In this document: piece by piece, positions 11,914 through 62,644 of the stretch | Numbering within the stretch: position 1 is the first letter of the stretch | Layout of the letters: every line of letters begins with the position of its first letter | The notes under the pieces: generated by a model | What the model was told of the DNA's origin: nothing | Databases searched by the model: none | The model's input: only the letters and a program-made list of their open reading frames with translations | Assembly (NCBI RefSeq): GCF_017348835.2 | Contig: NZ_CP071375.1 | Origin: Escherichia coli | GTDB lineage: Bacteria > Pseudomonadota > Gammaproteobacteria > Enterobacterales > Enterobacteriaceae | DNA length: 64,000 nucleotides | Strand: one strand, 5' to 3' | Made by a program: the position numbers and the translations under genes

Positions 11914-11946
11914 GGCCCGTCACCGCCAGGTGGTGGGCTTTTTTTT
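11914..11946 (+). terminator. tig intrinsic terminator
   Basis: GC-rich imperfect hairpin GCCCGTCACCGCCAGGTGGTGGGC followed by T8. Confidence 0.7.
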
Positions 11947-12017
11947 GTCATGAATTTTGCATGGAACCGTGCGAAAAGCCTCTTTCGGTGTTAGCGTAAC
12001 AACAAAAGATTGTTATG

Positions 12018-14149: not shown

Positions 14150-14180
14150 TTAACCATTCCCATACAATTAGTTAACCAAA

Positions 14181-14211
14181 AAGGGGGGATTTTATCTCCC
14201 CTTTAATTTTT
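14181..14211 (+). terminator. Terminator-like hairpin after clpX (AGGGGGGAT-TTTA-TCTCCCCT followed by T-rich run)
   Basis: Imperfect G/C stem followed by TTTAATTTTT. Confidence 0.45.
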
Positions 14212-14226
14212 CCTCTATTCTCGGCG

Positions 14227-14253
14227 TTGAATGTGGGGGAAACATCCCCATAT
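14227..14253 (+). promoter_or_regulatory. Sigma-32 (heat-shock) promoter of lon: -35 TTGAAT, 13-bp spacer, -10 CCCCATAT
   Basis: Near-consensus sigma-32 elements read about 85-110 nt upstream of lon ATG; coordinates consistent with the lon start frame. Confidence 0.7.
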
Positions 14254-14336
14254 ACTGACGTACATGTTAATAGATGGCGTGAAGCACAGTCGTGTCATCT
14301 GATTACCTGGCGGAAATTAAACTAAGAGAGAGCTCT

Positions 14337-16691
14337 ATGAATCCTGAGCGTTCTGAACGCATTGAAATCCCCGTATTGCCGCTGCGCGATGTGGTGGTTT
14401 ATCCGCACATGGTCATCCCCTTATTTGTCGGGCGGGAAAAATCTATCCGTTGTCTGGAAGCGGCGATGGACCATGATAAAAAAATTATGCTGGTTGCGCA
14501 GAAAGAAGCTTCAACGGATGAGCCGGGTGTAAACGATCTTTTCACCGTCGGGACCGTGGCCTCTATATTGCAGATGCTGAAACTGCCTGACGGCACCGTC
14601 AAAGTGCTGGTCGAGGGGTTACAGCGCGCGCGTATTTCTGCGCTCTCTGACAATGGCGAACACTTTTCTGCGAAGGCGGAGTATCTGGAGTCGCCGACCA
14701 TTGATGAGCGAGAACAGGAAGTGCTGGTGCGTACTGCAATCAGCCAGTTCGAAGGCTACATCAAGCTGAACAAAAAAATCCCACCAGAAGTGCTGACGTC
14801 GTTGAATAGCATCGACGATCCGGCGCGTCTGGCGGATACCATTGCTGCACATATGCCGCTGAAACTGGCTGACAAACAGTCCGTTCTGGAGATGTCCGAC
14901 GTTAACGAACGTCTAGAATATCTGATGGCAATGATGGAATCGGAAATCGATCTGCTGCAGGTTGAGAAACGCATTCGCAACCGCGTTAAAAAGCAGATGG
15001 AGAAATCCCAGCGTGAGTACTATCTGAACGAGCAAATGAAAGCTATTCAGAAAGAACTCGGTGAAATGGACGACGCGCCGGACGAAAACGAAGCCCTGAA
15101 GCGCAAAATCGACGCGGCGAAGATGCCGAAAGAGGCAAAAGAGAAAGCGGAAGCAGAGTTGCAGAAGCTGAAAATGATGTCTCCGATGTCGGCAGAAGCG
15201 ACCGTAGTGCGTGGTTATATCGACTGGATGGTACAGGTACCGTGGAATGCGCGCAGCAAGGTCAAAAAAGACCTGCGTCAGGCGCAGGAAATCCTTGATA
15301 CCGACCATTATGGTCTGGAGCGCGTGAAAGATCGCATCCTTGAGTATCTTGCGGTTCAAAGCCGTGTCAACAAAATCAAGGGACCGATCCTCTGCCTGGT
15401 AGGGCCGCCGGGGGTAGGTAAAACGTCCCTGGGTCAGTCCATCGCCAAAGCCACTGGGCGTAAATATGTCCGTATGGCGCTGGGCGGCGTGCGTGATGAA
15501 GCGGAAATCCGTGGTCACCGCCGTACTTACATCGGTTCTATGCCGGGTAAACTGATCCAGAAAATGGCGAAAGTGGGCGTGAAAAACCCGCTGTTCCTGC
15601 TCGATGAGATCGACAAAATGTCTTCTGACATGCGAGGCGATCCGGCCTCTGCACTGCTTGAAGTGCTGGATCCAGAGCAGAACGTAGCGTTCAGCGACCA
15701 CTACCTGGAAGTGGATTACGATCTCAGCGACGTGATGTTTGTCGCGACGTCGAACTCCATGAACATTCCGGCACCGCTGCTGGATCGTATGGAAGTGATT
15801 CGCCTCTCCGGTTATACCGAAGATGAAAAACTGAACATCGCCAAACGTCACCTGCTGCCGAAGCAGATTGAACGTAATGCACTGAAAAAAGGTGAGCTGA
15901 CCGTCGACGATAGCGCCATTATCGGCATTATTCGTTACTACACCCGTGAGGCGGGCGTGCGTGGTCTGGAGCGTGAAATCTCCAAACTGTGCCGTAAAGC
16001 GGTTAAGCAGTTACTGCTCGATAAGTCATTAAAACATATCGAAATTAACGGCGATAACCTGCATGACTATCTCGGTGTTCAGCGTTTTGACTATGGACGC
16101 GCGGATAACGAAAACCGTGTCGGTCAGGTAACCGGTCTGGCGTGGACTGAAGTGGGCGGTGACTTGCTGACCATTGAAACCGCATGTGTTCCGGGGAAAG
16201 GCAAACTGACCTATACCGGTTCGCTCGGCGAAGTGATGCAGGAGTCCATTCAGGCGGCGTTAACGGTGGTTCGTGCGCGTGCGGAAAAACTGGGGATCAA
16301 CCCTGATTTTTACGAAAAACGCGACATCCACGTCCACGTACCGGAAGGTGCGACGCCGAAAGATGGTCCGAGTGCTGGTATTGCTATGTGCACCGCGCTG
16401 GTTTCTTGCCTGACCGGTAACCCGGTTCGTGCCGATGTGGCAATGACCGGTGAGATCACTCTGCGTGGTCAGGTACTGCCGATCGGTGGTTTGAAAGAAA
16501 AACTACTGGCAGCGCATCGCGGTGGGATTAAAACAGTGTTAATTCCGTTCGAAAATAAACGCGATCTGGAAGAGATTCCTGACAACGTAATTGCCGATCT
16601 GGACATTCATCCTGTGAAGCGCATTGAGGAAGTTCTGACTCTGGCGCTGCAAAATGAACCGTCTGGCATGCAGGTTGTGACTGCAAAATAG
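14337..16691 (+). CDS. lon: ATP-dependent protease Lon, 784 aa
   Basis: ORF-track 14292..16691; start at [25 protein letters not shown]; Walker [10 protein letters not shown]; catalytic serine motif PKDGPSAG. Confidence 0.96.
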
Positions 16692-24330: not shown

Positions 24331-27877
<3,547 letters not shown>

Positions 27878-27920
27878 TTCGCGCAAAATTTCATCGTTGG
27901 TGCAAAAATGTAACGCACTG

Positions 27921-27937
27921 TGCACTGTCATAGTGCG
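27921..27937 (+). promoter_or_regulatory. NtrC-type enhancer site (TGCACTGTCATAGTGCG) upstream of glnK
   Basis: 17-bp element with TGCAC...GTGCG half-sites matching NtrC consensus architecture; coordinates frame-checked. Confidence 0.55.
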
Positions 27938-27989
27938 TTTTCATTTTCAATCTTCTTAACTTCCTGCTCTCTTTCTCGTTTTTCATTTC

Positions 27990-28005
27990 TGGCACACCGC
28001 TTGCA
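27990..28005 (+). promoter_or_regulatory. Sigma-54 promoter of glnK-amtB (TGGCAC-N5-TTGCA)
   Basis: Exact -24 GG / -12 GC consensus read in sequence, about 55 nt upstream of glnK ATG; coordinates frame-checked. Confidence 0.85.
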
Positions 28006-28057
28006 ATATCTTCTTCGTGTAGCAGAACCATTACCGAATTCTGACCGGAGGGGATCT

Positions 28058-28396
28058 ATGAAGCTGGTGACCGTGATAATCAAACCATTCAAGCTGGAAG
28101 ACGTTCGTGAAGCGTTATCTTCCATTGGTATTCAGGGCCTGACCGTCACCGAAGTGAAAGGTTTCGGGCGTCAGAAAGGGCATGCCGAGCTGTACCGGGG
28201 GGCGGAATACAGCGTCAACTTCCTGCCAAAAGTAAAAATTGATGTGGCGATTGCTGATGACCAACTCGATGAAGTGATCGATATCGTCAGTAAGGCGGCT
28301 TACACCGGAAAAATTGGCGACGGCAAAATCTTCGTCGCTGAATTGCAACGCGTCATTCGTATTCGTACCGGCGAAGCCGACGAAGCGGCGCTGTAA
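28058..28396 (+). CDS. glnK: Nitrogen regulatory protein PII-2 GlnK, 112 aa
   Basis: ORF-track 27920..28396; start at MKLVTVIIKPFKLEDVREAL. Confidence 0.96.
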   Translation: MKLVTVIIKPFKLEDVREALSSIGIQGLTVTEVKGFGRQKGHAELYRGAEYSVNFLPKVKIDVAIADDQLDEVIDIVSKAAYTGKIGDGKIFVAELQRVIRIRTGEADEAAL

Positions 28397-28425
28397 TCTC
28401 TGGCACACAGCAACAGGAACGAAAA

Positions 28426-29712
28426 ATGAAGATAGCGACGATAAAAACTGGGCTTGCTTCACTGGCGATGCTGCCGGGACTGGTAATGGCTGCACCTGCG
28501 GTGGCCGATAAAGCCGACAATGCGTTTATGATGATTTGTACTGCGCTGGTGCTGTTTATGACTATTCCGGGGATTGCCCTGTTTTACGGTGGGTTGATTC
28601 GCGGCAAAAACGTGCTGTCGATGCTGACGCAGGTGACGGTGACGTTTGCACTGGTCTGTATTCTCTGGGTGGTTTACGGTTACTCGCTGGCGTTTGGTGA
28701 GGGCAACAACTTCTTCGGCAACATTAACTGGCTGATGCTGAAAAACATCGAACTGACGGCGGTGATGGGCAGCATTTGTCAGTATATCCACGTAGCGTTT
28801 CAGGGATCGTTTGCCTGCATTACCGTAGGCTTGATAGTTGGGGCGCTGGCGGAACGAATCCGCTTCTCAGCTGTGTTGATTTTCGTGGTGGTATGGCTGA
28901 CGCTCTCTTACATTCCAATTGCGCATATGGTCTGGGGCGGTGGTTTGCTGGCTTCTCACGGTGCGCTGGATTTCGCGGGTGGCACGGTGGTGCACATTAA
29001 CGCCGCAATCGCCGGTCTGGTGGGCGCGTATCTGATAGGAAAACGCGTGGGCTTCGGTAAAGAGGCGTTTAAACCGCACAACCTGCCGATGGTCTTCACC
29101 GGGACTGCCATTCTCTATATCGGTTGGTTTGGCTTTAACGCCGGGTCAGCGGGCACGGCGAAAGAAATCGCGGCACTGGCATTTGTGAATACTGTGGTCG
29201 CAACGGCGGCGGCAATTCTTGGCTGGATCTTCGGTGAATGGGCGCTGCGTGGTAAGCCTTCACTGCTGGGGGCGTGTTCTGGCGCGATTGCCGGTCTGGT
29301 CGGCGTGACGCCAGCCTGTGGCTACATTGGTGTTGGCGGCGCGTTGATTATCGGCGTGGTAGCTGGTCTGGCGGGCTTGTGGGGCGTTACCATGCTCAAA
29401 CGCTTGCTGCGGGTGGATGATCCCTGCGATGTCTTCGGTGTGCACGGCGTTTGTGGCATTGTCGGCTGTATCATGACCGGGATTTTTGCCGCCAGTTCGC
29501 TGGGCGGCGTGGGCTTCGCTGAAGGTGTGACGATGGGCCATCAGTTGCTGGTACAGTTGGAAAGCATTGCCATTACGATCGTCTGGTCCGGTGTGGTGGC
29601 ATTTATTGGCTACAAACTGGCGGATCTGACGGTTGGCCTGCGTGTGCCGGAAGAACAGGAGCGAGAAGGGCTGGACGTCAACAGTCACGGCGAGAATGCC
29701 TATAACGCGTAA
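28426..29712 (+). CDS. amtB: Ammonium channel AmtB, 428 aa
   Basis: ORF-track full length; signal peptide then multi-TM Amt fold. Confidence 0.96.
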   Translation: MKIATIKTGLASLAMLPGLVMAAPAVADKADNAFMMICTALVLFMTIPGIALFYGGLIRGKNVLSMLTQVTVTFALVCILWVVYGYSLAFGEGNNFFGNINWLMLKNIELTAVMGSICQYIHVAFQGSFACITVGLIVGALAERIRFSAVLIFVVVWLTLSYIPIAHMVWGGGLLASHGALDFAGGTVVHINAAIAGLVGAYLIGKRVGFGKEAFKPHNLPMVFTGTAILYIGWFGFNAGSAGTAKEIAALAFVNTVVATAAAILGWIFGEWALRGKPSLLGACSGAIAGLVGVTPACGYIGVGGALIIGVVAGLAGLWGVTMLKRLLRVDDPCDVFGVHGVCGIVGCIMTGIFAASSLGGVGFAEGVTMGHQLLVQLESIAITIVWSGVVAFIGYKLADLTVGLRVPEEQEREGLDVNSHGENAYNA

Positions 29713-41220: not shown

Positions 41221-41868
41221 ATGGCACGAAAAACCAAACAAGAAGCGCAAGAAACGCGCCAACACATCCTCGATGTGGCTCTACGTCTTTTCTCACAGCA
41301 GGGGGTATCATCCACCTCGCTGGGTGAGATTGCAAAAGCAGCTGGCGTTACGCGCGGTGCAATCTACTGGCATTTTAAAGACAAGTCGGATTTGTTCAGT
41401 GAGATCTGGGAACTGTCAGAATCCAATATTGGTGAACTAGAGCTTGAGTATCAGGCAAAATTCCCTGGCGATCCACTCTCAGTATTAAGAGAGATATTAA
41501 TTCATGTTCTTGAATCCACGGTGACAGAAGAACGGCGTCGATTATTGATGGAGATTATATTCCACAAATGCGAATTTGTCGGAGAAATGGCTGTTGTGCA
41601 ACAGGCACAACGTAATCTCTGTCTGGAAAGTTATGACCGTATAGAACAAACGTTAAAACATTGTATTGAAGCGAAAATGTTGCCTGCGGATTTAATGACG
41701 CGTCGGGCAGCAATTATTATGCGCGGCTATATTTCCGGCCTGATGGAAAACTGGCTCTTTGCCCCGCAATCTTTTGATCTTAAAAAAGAAGCCCGCGATT
41801 ACGTCGCCATCTTACTGGAGATGTATCTCCTGTGCCCCACGCTTCGTAACCCTGCCACTAACGAATAA
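41221..41868 (+). CDS. acrR: TetR-family repressor AcrR, 215 aa
   Basis: ORF-track full length; N-terminal TetR HTH ([37 protein letters not shown]). Confidence 0.96.
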
Positions 41869-47551: not shown

Positions 47552-48846
47552 ATGAGTTATCAGGTCTTAGCCCGAAAATGGCGCCCACAAACCTTTGCTG
47601 ACGTCGTCGGCCAGGAACATGTGCTGACCGCACTGGCGAACGGCTTGTCGTTAGGGCGTATTCATCATGCTTATCTTTTTTCCGGTACCCGTGGCGTCGG
47701 AAAAACCTCTATCGCCCGACTGCTGGCGAAGGGGCTAAACTGCGAAACCGGCATTACCGCGACGCCGTGCGGCGTGTGCGATAACTGTCGTGAAATCGAG
47801 CAGGGGCGCTTTGTCGATCTGATTGAAATCGACGCCGCCTCGCGCACCAAAGTTGAAGATACCCGCGACCTGCTGGATAACGTCCAGTACGCTCCGGCGC
47901 GTGGTCGTTTCAAAGTTTATCTCATCGACGAAGTGCATATGCTGTCGCGCCACAGCTTTAACGCACTGTTAAAAACTCTTGAAGAGCCGCCGGAGCACGT
48001 TAAGTTTCTGCTGGCGACGACCGATCCACAGAAATTGCCGGTGACGATTTTGTCGCGCTGTTTGCAATTTCATCTCAAGGCGCTGGATGTCGAGCAAATT
48101 CGCCATCAACTTGAGCACATCCTCAATGAAGAACATATCGCTCACGAGCCGCGGGCGCTGCAATTGCTGGCGCGCGCCGCTGAAGGCAGCCTGCGAGATG
48201 CCTTAAGTCTGACCGACCAGGCGATTGCCAGCGGTGACGGCCAGGTTTCAACCCAGGCGGTCAGTGCGATGCTGGGTACGCTTGACGACGATCAGGCGCT
48301 GTCGCTGGTTGAAGCGATGGTCGAGGCCAACGGCGAGCGCGTAATGGCACTGATTAATGAAACCGCTGCCCGTGGTATCGAGTGGGAAGCGTTGCTGGTG
48401 GAAATGCTCGGCTTGTTGCATCGTATTGCGATGGTACAACTTTCGCCTGCTGCACTTGGCAACGACATGGCCGCCATCGAGCTGCGGATGCGTGAACTGG
48501 CGCGCACCATACCGCCGACGGATATTCAGCTTTACTATCAGACGCTGTTGATTGGTCGCAAAGAATTACCGTATGCGCCGGACCGCCGTATGGGCGTTGA
48601 GATGACGCTGCTGCGCGCGCTGGCGTTCCATCCGCGTATGCCGCTGCCTGAGCCAGAAGTGCCACGCCAGTCCTTTGCACCCGTCGCGCCAACGGCAGTA
48701 ATGACGCCACCCCAGGTGCCGCCGCAACCGCAATCAGCGCCGCAGCAGGCACCGACTGTACCGCTCCCGGAAACCACCAGCCAGGTGCTGGCGGCGCGCC
48801 AGCAGTTGCAGCGCGTGCAGGGAGCAACCAAAGCAAAAAAGAGTGA
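47552..48846 (+). CDS. dnaX: DNA polymerase III gamma subunit, 431 aa, produced by programmed -1 frameshift at 48835-48841 then Glu and TGA stop at 48844-48846
   Basis: Slippery heptamer A AAA AAG in frame at codons 428-430; -1 frame reads GAG TGA immediately after; established mechanism. Confidence 0.85.
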
Positions 48847-49483
48847 ACCGGCAGCCGCTACCCGCGCGCGGCCGGTGAATAACGCTGCGCTGGAAAGACT
48901 GGCTTCGGTCACCGATCGCGTTCAGGCGCGTCCGGTGCCATCGGCGCTGGAAAAAGCGCCAGCCAAAAAAGAAGCGTATCGCTGGAAGGCGACCACTCCG
49001 GTGATGCAGCAAAAAGAAGTGGTCGCCACACCGAAGGCGCTGAAAAAAGCGCTGGAACATGAAAAAACGCCGGAACTGGCGGCGAAGCTGGCGGCAGAAG
49101 CCATTGAGCGCGACGCGTGGGCGGCTCAGGTGAGTCAACTTTCGCTACCAAAACTGGTCGAACAGGTGGCGTTAAATGCCTGGAAAGAGGAGAGTGATAA
49201 CGCAGTATGTTTGCATTTGCGCTCCTCTCAGCGGCATTTGAACAACCGCGGTGCACAGCAAAAACTGGCTGAAGCGTTGAGCATGTTAAAAGGTTCAACG
49301 GTTGAACTGACTATCGTTGAAGATGATAATCCCGCGGTGCGTACGCCGCTGGAGTGGCGTCAGGCGATATACGAAGAAAAACTTGCGCAGGCGCGCGAGT
49401 CCATTATTGCGGATAATAATATTCAGACCCTGCGTCGGTTTTTCGATGCGGAGCTGGATGAAGAAAGTATCCGCCCCATTTGA
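47552..49483 (+). CDS. dnaX: DNA polymerase III tau subunit DnaX, 643 aa (full-length product)
   Basis: ORF-track full length; Walker A GTRGVGKTS; zinc-binding CGVCDNC. Confidence 0.97.
   Translation: MSYQVLARKWRPQTFADVVGQEHVLTALANGLSLGRIHHAYLFSGTRGVGKTSIARLLAKGLNCETGITATPCGVCDNCREIEQGRFVDLIEIDAASRTKVEDTRDLLDNVQYAPARGRFKVYLIDEVHMLSRHSFNALLKTLEEPPEHVKFLLATTDPQKLPVTILSRCLQFHLKALDVEQIRHQLEHILNEEHIAHEPRALQLLARAAEGSLRDALSLTDQAIASGDGQVSTQAVSAMLGTLDDDQALSLVEAMVEANGERVMALINETAARGIEWEALLVEMLGLLHRIAMVQLSPAALGNDMAAIELRMRELARTIPPTDIQLYYQTLLIGRKELPYAPDRRMGVEMTLLRALAFHPRMPLPEPEVPRQSFAPVAPTAVMTPPQVPPQPQSAPQQAPTVPLPETTSQVLAARQQLQRVQGATKAKKSEPAAATRARPVNNAALERLASVTDRVQARPVPSALEKAPAKKEAYRWKATTPVMQQKEVVATPKALKKALEHEKTPELAAKLAAEAIERDAWAAQVSQLSLPKLVEQVALNAWKEESDNAVCLHLRSSQRHLNNRGAQQKLAEALSMLKGSTVELTIVEDDNPAVRTPLEWRQAIYEEKLAQARESIIADNNIQTLRRFFDAELDEESIRPI
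48835..48875 (+). other. dnaX: dnaX programmed ribosomal frameshift cassette: slippery site A_AAA_AAG (48835-48841) plus downstream stem-loop CCGGCAGCCGCTACCCGCGCGCGGCCGG (48848-48875)
   Basis: Heptamer and GC-rich hairpin 6 nt downstream read directly; frame verified from the dnaX start. Confidence 0.9.
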
Positions 49484-56794: not shown

Positions 56795-56890
56795 GGTTCG
56801 TAGGCCAGATAAGGCGTTCACGCCGCATCTGGCATTTGGCATCTCGATGCCTGATGCGACGCTGGCGCGTCTTATCATGCCTACATATTT
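56795..56890. repeat. REP/BIME: two inverted REP units after gsk
   Basis: GTAGGCCAGATAAGGCGTTCACGCCGCATCTGGCA and GATGCCTGATGCGACGCTGGCGCGTCTTATCATGCCTAC. Confidence 0.8.
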
Positions 56891-62560: not shown

Positions 62561-62644
62561 ACACCGTCGCTTAAAGTGACGGCATAATAATAAAAAAATG
62601 AAATTCCTCTTTGACGGGCCAATAGCGATATTGGCCATTTTTTT
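62561..62644 (+). ncRNA. chiX: ChiX (MicM/SroB) Hfq-dependent small RNA, about 84 nt, with terminator hairpin GGCCAATAGCGATATTGGCC plus U7
   Basis: Sequence ACACCGTCGCTTAAAGTGACGGCATAATAATAAAAAAATGAAATTCCTCTTTGACGGGCCAATAGCGATATTGGCCATTTTTTT matches remembered ChiX including seed CUCUUUGACGGG; coordinates frame-checked. Confidence 0.9.

Follow-up and report, generated by a model that had tools for sequence, protein, structure and literature searches.

The sigma-54-dependent glnK-amtB promoter in a stretch of Escherichia coli DNA and a terminator-like hairpin that overlaps its NtrC site

In a 64-kb stretch of Escherichia coli DNA (the window), we have re-identified what is very probably glnKp, the already known promoter of glnK-amtB in E. 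coli, which depends on sigma-54 and is activated by NtrC. Its sigma-54 core and a strong NtrC site lie between mdlB and glnK, and the NtrC site is shared with a predicted terminator-like hairpin at the end of mdlB. The glnKp promoter of E. coli K-12 is reportedly the subject of van Heeswijk et al. 1996 and Atkinson et al. 2002. It is in wide use, both to report nitrogen starvation and as a part of synthetic circuits. The re-identification of such an ordinary, well-characterised NtrC/sigma-54 promoter matters little in itself. The overlap of enhancer and terminator and the strict phasing of the enhancer over 31 genomes would be small refinements of a known system, and these, along with native-context support for an anti-Shine-Dalgarno insulator, may interest those who engineer sigma-54 enhancers.

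The glnK-amtB locus and its sigma-54 core promoter

Open reading frames and a megablast comparison with 5,426 complete E. coli genomes gave the locus order mdlA-mdlB-glnK-amtB-tesB. The locus was matched in 5,423 of the 5,426 genomes, with a 100% match in two pig isolates, and the gene order was borne out by the RefSeq annotation of strain PE164 (100% identical) and of K-12 MG1655. The genes and promoter elements needed for what follows are these:

26096..27877, + strand: mdlB, an SmdB-family ABC transporter (PE164 RefSeq annotation converted to window coordinates; end of the open reading frame)
27875-27877, + strand: the mdlB stop codon, TGA; mdlB lies upstream of glnK and is co-oriented with it
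27989..28005, + strand: the sigma-54 (RpoN) core promoter glnKp, CTGGCACACCGCTTGCA (motif read, K-12 identity and ChIP-seq motif OS03)
28016..28057, + strand: predicted transcription start at 28016-28017 and 42-nt 5' UTR (start rule; OS03 centre + 19)
28047-28053, + strand: the Shine-Dalgarno (SD) sequence of glnK, GGAGGGG, within the 5' UTR
28058..28396, + strand: glnK, PII-2 nitrogen regulatory protein, with its ATG at 28058 (open reading frames and RefSeq annotation)
28426..29712, + strand: amtB, ammonium transporter, co-transcribed with glnK (open reading frames and RefSeq annotation)

The earlier note had read an exact TGGCAC-N5-TTGCA at 27990-28005 and a 17-bp TGCAC...GTGCG element at 27921-27937, and both sets of coordinates proved exact on re-reading, which makes this promoter a useful positive control for readings of that kind. 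The sigma-54 element consists of TGGCAC (27990-27995), the spacer ACCGC (27996-28000) and TTGCA (28001-28005). Its two diagnostic dinucleotides, whose absence the same note had named as a reason to give up the reading, are both present, with the -24 GG at 27991-27992 and the -12 GC at 28003-28004. The sequence TGGCACACCGCTTGCA at 27990-28005 is the sole exact match to TGGCAC-N5-TTGCW on either strand of the 64 kb, where 0.10 matches are expected. At least one exact match turned up in 9 of 100 shuffles of the window, and the motif alone is statistically suggestive and not overwhelming.

Comparison with the characterised promoter, which the earlier note had put forward as a check, identified the element directly. 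From 27888 to the glnK ATG, an alignment showed the window to be K-12 MG1655 sequence apart from two SNPs, both of which fall outside the motifs. The first, in the linker between enhancer and core, has T at 27951 where MG1655 has A; the second is T for C at 28009, which provides one extra A-U pair in the predicted anti-SD:SD helix discussed below. The window and K-12 glnKp thus differ over this interval at 27951 and 28009 only, and they have in common the core 17-mer, the NtrC dyad, the Shine-Dalgarno sequence and the gene order. The core CTGGCACACCGCTTGCA corresponds to the K-12 sigma-54 ChIP-seq peak OS03 (FAT 18) of Bonocora et al. 2015 (PMC4591121). In window numbering the OS03 centre (U00096.2 position 471761) falls at 27997, the midpoint of 27989-28005 (K-12 U00096.3 positions are window positions + 444,540, and U00096.2 numbers are 776 lower). 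In the supplement of that study the OS03 motif has a PSSM score of at least 9.5 in the majority of the gamma-proteobacterial genomes covered (~20), and the EcoCyc status of the glnK promoter in 2015 is given there as 'predicted', not experimentally confirmed (PMC4591121). A gSELEX peak of the RpoN holoenzyme has likewise been placed between mdlB and glnK in K-12 (Shimada et al. 2021; PMC8743547). A promoter scan of 27700-28600 returned 0 sigma-70-like sites.

The transcription start was predicted by a rule that sets +1 twelve bases past the C of the -12 dinucleotide. For K-12 glnAp2 this rule reproduces exactly the published positions of the two strong NtrC sites, -140 and -108; for the window it sets +1 at 28016 and the centre of the NtrC dyad at -87. 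The start predicted for OS03, 19 bp past the motif centre and 42 nt before glnK (PMC4591121), also converts to window position 28016. A second TGGCAC, at 28401-28406 between glnK and amtB, was considered as a promoter and rejected; it has no -12 GC and is conserved only in Escherichia and Citrobacter.

The NtrC site, its conservation and its helical phase

27921..27937, no strand assigned: strong NtrC (NRI) site, or enhancer, TGCACTGTCATAGTGCG, centred at -87 (PWM rank, orthologous sites and helical phasing)
27888..27917, no strand assigned: candidate weak or auxiliary NtrC sites (from half-site conservation and spacing)

The 17-mer reads TGCAC (27921-27925), TGTCATA (27926-27932) and GTGCG (27933-27937). 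It is an imperfect dyad, the right arm being GTGCG and not GTGCA, and the final G recurs in all 15 Enterobacterales loci described below. Within the 64-kb window TGCAC-N7-GTGCA has 4 matches with at most one mismatch against 3.4 expected, and the core GCAC-N7-GTGC has 2 matches against 1.99 expected. Neither this motif nor the sigma-54 motif is statistically remarkable by itself; their significance comes from context. The NtrC element precedes the only exact sigma-54 core by 69 bp, and given ~2 GCAC-N7-GTGC matches per 64 kb, the chance that one falls in a 140-bp upstream zone is ~0.004. The element stands above chance because it is placed near a sigma-54 core, ranks first by position weight matrix (PWM) and is conserved across genera.

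The PWM was trained on the two glnAp2 sites and 13 sites upstream of glnK in other genera, with E. coli and E. albertii excluded. In the NtrC scan, another check put forward in the earlier note, 27921-27937 came top of 63,984 positions with 21.1 bits, against 10.9 for the runner-up, a rank that partly reflects homology since the training set includes other-genus orthologues of the tested site. The runner-up match is at 14592-14608, inside lon. The site TGCACTGTCATAGTGCG contains the full GCAC-N7-GTGC core and has 4 mismatches to the 14 specified bases of the idealised consensus TGCACCA-N3-TGGTGCA. That consensus was tried as a discriminator and discarded, sequences inside mdlB scoring equal or higher.

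A GlnK-anchored scan of the genomes of 100,044 species yielded 79 loci, 15 of them from Enterobacterales. A sigma-54 core with at most two mismatches was found in all 15 Enterobacterales loci, as well as in many other gamma-proteobacteria; in the 15, the predicted start and the ATG are separated by 33-78 nt. A (T/C/A)GCAC-N7-GTGCG dyad precedes the core in 14 of the 15 and in the window, and mdlB is the upstream gene in 14/15. Among Enterobacterales with mdlB-glnK synteny, the core is accompanied by a GCAC-N7-GTGCG site in 15 of 15. The other Enterobacterales glnK promoters resemble the one in the window in having the sigma-54 core 32-104 nt before the ATG and one or more NtrC dyads upstream in helical phase; in other genera the strong dyad lies at -97 to -142, often with extra sites 32-33 or 62 bp further upstream, and the Pseudomonas glnK promoter has an NtrC pair at -109/-142 and a long 5' UTR.

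Phasing was analysed in 32 sites from 31 loci that combine a good core with a strict GCAC-N7-GTGC site. The distances from site to start in these loci are -87, -97/-98, -108 to -111, -118, -128 to -133, -139 to -142 and ~-150. The Rayleigh R for the 31 loci is 0.75-0.77 at periods of 10.5-10.6 bp; periods of 9.5 and 12.5 bp give 0.18 and 0.04, respectively. With each distinct distance counted once, R is similar. A periodicity of ~10.5 bp implies that the enhancer is kept on one face of the helix while its distance shifts by whole turns, as expected of an activator that works by looping. Nowhere in the sample are enhancer and promoter closer together than in E. coli and E. albertii. Taken together, PWM rank, conservation and helical phasing support the assignment of 27921-27937 as an NtrC site.

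Canonical NtrC enhancers are tandem, and no second strong NtrC site was found by PWM in the mdlB-glnK intergenic region. Two overlapping candidates for weaker sites lie immediately upstream. The first, 27888-27904, has a perfect right half-site, TGGTGCA, at 27898-27904, and its centre lies 33 bp before that of the strong site; its GGTGCA is kept in 8 of the nine close enterics compared below, and its 33-bp spacing is that found at glnAp2, in Pseudomonas and in several enterics. The second, 27901-27917, is a weak dyad, TGCAAAAATGTAACGCA, centred 20 bp upstream of the strong site. The two rank only 227 and 1228 of 63,984 by PWM, although close relatives keep both of them. Citrobacter, Enterobacter Ag1 and a Klebsiella sp. 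have a second NtrC site 32-33 bp upstream of the main one.

The earlier note had called the arrangement the textbook nitrogen-regulated architecture. This description holds insofar as the element is glnKp, with a sigma-54 core and an NtrC site, and fails insofar as only one site is strong, where the textbook has a tandem pair. The likeness to glnAp2, the paradigm of NtrC/sigma-54 promoters, extends to the -24/-12 core, the upstream GCAC-N7-GTGC dyads and activation by looping (PMC1865078). The two promoters differ in the number of strong sites, which is two at glnAp2 (-140 and -108) and one, much closer to the start (-87), at glnKp. In addition, glnAp2 has low-affinity 'governor' sites and is overlapped by the sigma-70 promoter glnAp1, whereas glnKp has only weak or half sites further upstream and no sigma-70 promoter. 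A lone strong site should make glnKp more demanding of NtrC~P than glnAp2, in line with the published ordering (PMC3870243).

A terminator-like hairpin of mdlB overlapping the enhancer

27912..27948, + strand: terminator-like RNA hairpin of mdlB (terminator scan, fold energy and conservation)

The terminator scan flagged 27912-27939 and the T-run that follows, beginning 35 nt past the mdlB stop codon. In the predicted hairpin, AACGCACTGTG (27912-27922) pairs with CATAGTGCGTT (27929-27939) to give an 11-bp stem, 5 of whose pairs are G-C, closed by the 6-nt loop CACTGT. The last two bases of the stem also belong to the T-run, TTTTCATTTTC (27938-27948). The U-tract is interrupted in E. coli (UUUUCAUUUUC) and is continuous, with 5-8 U, in relatives. 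The hairpin has an energy of -14.4 kcal/mol, which drops to -18.2 when the A/U flanks are included, and the fold of the 83-nt region has z = -3.8. The 3' arm of the hairpin consists of the right NtrC half-site plus TT. Most of the 5' arm precedes the dyad, and most of the left half-site, TGCAC, falls in the loop. The axes of symmetry therefore differ, that of the hairpin being 27925.5 and that of the NtrC dyad 27929, 3.5 bp apart.

The hairpin was compared in nine close enterics drawn from Escherichia, Citrobacter, Enterobacter, Superficieibacter and a Klebsiella sp. Over the 9 species 92.9% of cells are paired, as against 25-66% when the partners are slid, and the TTTT straight after the stem is invariant. 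One pair is compensatory, U-A in 4 species and C-G in 5, with a change of the right half-site from ATAG to ATGG matched in the 5' arm at a base outside the dyad. The covariation is modest, amounting to one pair and probably one evolutionary event. From these features we infer that mdlAB transcripts end at 27940-27948 through an intrinsic terminator.

The stability of this hairpin, its pairing across the nine species, the compensatory use of a left-arm base that does not belong to the dyad, and the fact that the 17-mer motif by itself is statistically not rare would all sit well with a different account, in which the palindrome at 27921-27937 is the stem of the mdlB terminator only and NtrC acts from another site. 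We regard that account as improbable. In Yersinia, Rahnella, Acerihabitans and Photorhabdus a separate hairpin near the mdlB stop codon carries the terminator anatomy, and the GCAC-N7-GTGCG dyad is nonetheless kept there, with no T-run and at distances from the stop of up to 175 nt. Persistence of the dyad where the terminator is separate points to its conservation as an NtrC site in its own right. The dyad also keeps the 11-bp spacing of NtrC half-sites although the hairpin axis is offset from it, its distance to the sigma-54 core is in phase with the helical repeat, and the PWM picks out no other NtrC site between mdlB and glnK.

Retaining 27921-27937 as an NtrC site, we conclude from the comparison across genera that the compact 180-260-bp spacer of the E. 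coli clade appears to have fused the NtrC dyad with the mdlB terminator. It is possible, and we put it forward tentatively, that throughout Escherichia-Citrobacter-Enterobacter-Klebsiella the NtrC enhancer is merged with the mdlAB terminator in an overlap that is functional and previously undescribed. If true, the same ~28 bp would be both the RNA signal that ends mdlAB and the DNA enhancer that starts glnK-amtB, and glnK-amtB would be insulated in three layers, by termination, by SD occlusion and by the closed complex of the sigma-54 polymerase. NtrC~P on the overlapping site might, in addition, act as a transcription roadblock. No description of an enhancer/terminator overlap at mdlB-glnK was found in the searchable literature, and Rfam has no RNA family in the mdlB-glnK region.

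Activation by NtrC and predicted occlusion of read-through RNA

Binding and expression data from K-12 bear on the identity of the activator. Brown et al. 2014 (PMC4066584) found NtrC enriched 39.7-fold by ChIP-seq in a peak immediately upstream of glnK; the interval converts to window 27977-28057, ~40 bp downstream of the dyad, and is compatible with it only at the resolution of ChIP-seq. In the same study glnK mRNA was not readily detected in a glnG deletion and was restored by complementation (PMC4066584). An NtrC gSELEX peak has been located between mdlB and glnK (Shimada et al. 2021; PMC8743547). Schumacher et al. 2013 (PMC3870243) described glnKp as a 'simpler' promoter, exclusively dependent on NtrC phosphorylation, and a proposal cited there holds that glnK and nac fire only once NtrC passes a threshold. 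A dyad alone does not reveal the specificity of its activator, and E. coli has about a dozen sigma-54 activators (bEBPs), so that one of these other than NtrC could be imagined to use the dyad. Such a substitution is highly improbable, given that the GCAC-N7-GTGC core is common to the dyad and the two experimentally defined glnAp2 NtrC sites, that both NtrC ChIP-seq (PMC4066584) and gSELEX (PMC8743547) hit the region and that the transcript depends on glnG as just described. We therefore continue with NtrC as the activator of glnKp.

27938..27989, + strand: pyrimidine-rich looping linker of 52 bp (C+T content), holding a distal CT-rich anti-SD segment at ~27960-27978
28009..28017, + strand: proximal anti-Shine-Dalgarno segment, TCTTCTTCG, at or just upstream of the start and so present in read-through RNA only

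The mechanism of the Ntr system is established knowledge and is here applied to glnKp. Sigma-54 RNA polymerase would sit on the core (27989-28005), at the -24 GG and -12 GC, in a closed complex that it cannot open by itself. Under nitrogen limitation NtrB would phosphorylate NtrC, and NtrC~P would assemble on the enhancer, that is, on the strong dyad at 27921-27937, probably aided by the weak or half sites in 27888-27917. The NtrC~P oligomer would then contact the polymerase by looping the pyrimidine-rich linker and, with ATP hydrolysis, open the promoter, so that transcription from ~28016-28017 would give the glnK-amtB mRNA. The right NtrC half-site and the T-run would double as the 3' arm of the intrinsic terminator (27912-27948) that ends mdlAB transcripts, and in any RNA that reads through, the CT-rich anti-SD segments (28009-28017 and ~27960-27978) would mask the ribosome-binding site of glnK.

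This last step was examined by RNA folding. On the + strand of the window, C+T content over 80 nt peaks at 27936-28017 (0.775), and in read-through RNA TCTTCTTCG is predicted to pair with 28046-28054 at a probability of 0.99-1.0. The probabilities that the SD is unpaired, all computed in silico, were as follows:

native transcript from 28016: 0.36-0.39
read-through RNA with the real upstream 80 nt: 0.002
about 200 arbitrary 80-mers of the window placed upstream: mean 0.35, with 0 as low as the real one
read-through RNA with the K-12 alleles 27951A + 28009C: 0.006
read-through RNA with 28010-28016 swapped to purines (in silico mutation): 0.09
read-through RNA with both 28010-28016 and 27960-27978 swapped to purines (in silico mutation): 0.68

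When the proximal segment alone is swapped, the distal CT segment takes over the pairing with the SD in these predictions. Of 15 relatives, 14 likewise have an SD that is less accessible in the read-through RNA than in the native transcript. Shuffling the 80 nt upstream with their composition preserved lowers SD accessibility too, and the effect is thus compositional, a matter of CT-richness. A single conserved anti-SD:SD helix was considered and rejected, the shuffle control pointing to composition instead. We infer from the predicted folds that the glnK SD is sequestered in read-through RNA only and that the sigma-54 transcript stays translatable.

That the motifs are chance matches, with glnK-amtB driven by mdlAB read-through or by an unrecognised sigma-70 promoter, is hardly credible, for despite the exact sigma-54 motif found somewhere in 9/100 window shuffles and an NtrC-like core at chance frequency, the sequence is that of a ChIP-seq-verified K-12 sigma-54 site, is conserved in 15 Enterobacterales and beyond and has no sigma-70-like promoter in its surroundings (27700-28600), and any read-through RNA is predicted to be terminated and translationally occluded.

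The occlusion predicted at the native locus has a counterpart in the work of Levy et al. (10.1101/086108), who dissected glnKp with hundreds of mutants and found that its CT-rich flanks silence the translation of read-through transcripts by pairing with the SD. They assigned this to a 7-nt CT-rich region centred at -4 and to a distal CT-rich region, with additive effects (10.1101/086108). The likeness of the present arrangement to their 'insulator' covers the proximal CT segment at about -4, the distal CT segment, the additivity and the silencing of read-through only. Their constructs were synthetic reporter contexts, whereas the pairing predicted here is with the native glnK SD and the native upstream RNA, and in the window, unlike in those constructs, a terminator-like hairpin precedes the CT-rich stretch.

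NtrC-like dyad and terminator-like hairpin upstream of glnK

An additional NtrC-like dyad, (T/C)GCACCA-N3-TCAGGC(A/G), was found in many Enterobacterales (glnK loci L004-L007 and L010-L013 of other genomes), where it precedes the main NtrC site by ~62 bp, equal to six helical turns. In L005, L006, L007 and L004 the mdlB-glnK spacer begins with this dyad, which in Enterobacter and Superficieibacter lies right next to the stop codon of mdlB. The additional dyad is missing from E. coli and E. albertii.

The main NtrC dyad of the window (27921-27937) overlaps a terminator-like hairpin and T-run of mdlB, the gene upstream (27912-27948); the hairpin is kept in nine close enterics with one compensatory pair. 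Unlike in E. coli, the terminator-like hairpin of Yersinia, Rahnella and Photorhabdus is an element separate from the NtrC dyad.

The pyrimidine-rich stretch before glnK and strain differences

The 80-nt stretch with the highest C+T content on the + strand of the entire 64-kb window lies at 27936-28017 (C+T 0.775). Predictions for RNA reading through into glnK from upstream show this stretch masking the Shine-Dalgarno sequence of glnK completely. Position 28009 is T in the window and C in K-12, and the T would add one pair to this predicted occluding helix. AmtB (28426-29712) differs from that of K-12 by two residue changes, Y118C and N246K (precursor numbering). Among 5,423 E. coli genomes, only two, those of the pig isolates PE164 and F2_81, matched the 801-bp glnK region at 99% or more, and the next best among the matches listed were at 98.9%.

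The 10-mer TCTGGCACAC of the glnKp -24 region (27988-27997) recurs in the glnK-amtB spacer at 28398-28407. This copy has no GC at -12, its conservation extends no further than Escherichia and Citrobacter, and it is probably not a promoter.

Other matches and RNA families in the window

The sequence TTGTCATGAATTTTGCA (11945-11961, + strand) is identical to the published motif of OS02, a sigma-54 ChIP-seq site upstream of clpP in K-12 (PMC4591121). Another sigma-54-like match, with two mismatches (41246-41261, - strand), is close to where site IA05 from the same study maps after coordinate conversion. The second-best match to the NtrC matrix, GGCACCGTCAAAGTGCT (14592-14608), is within lon (ORF 14292-16691), ~20 bp downstream of the sigma-54-like TGGCCTCTATATTGCA (14557-14572, two mismatches), also within lon; this intragenic pair probably arose by chance. 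Five RNA families were matched at the Rfam gathering threshold:

Rfam matches in the window
14170-14265, sraA
31916-32012, SRP RNA (ffs)
48816-48880, dnaX frameshift element
56803-56881, naRNA4
62561-62644, sroB

These matches are consistent with ~444.5-508.5 kb of the E. coli chromosome (K-12 coordinates).
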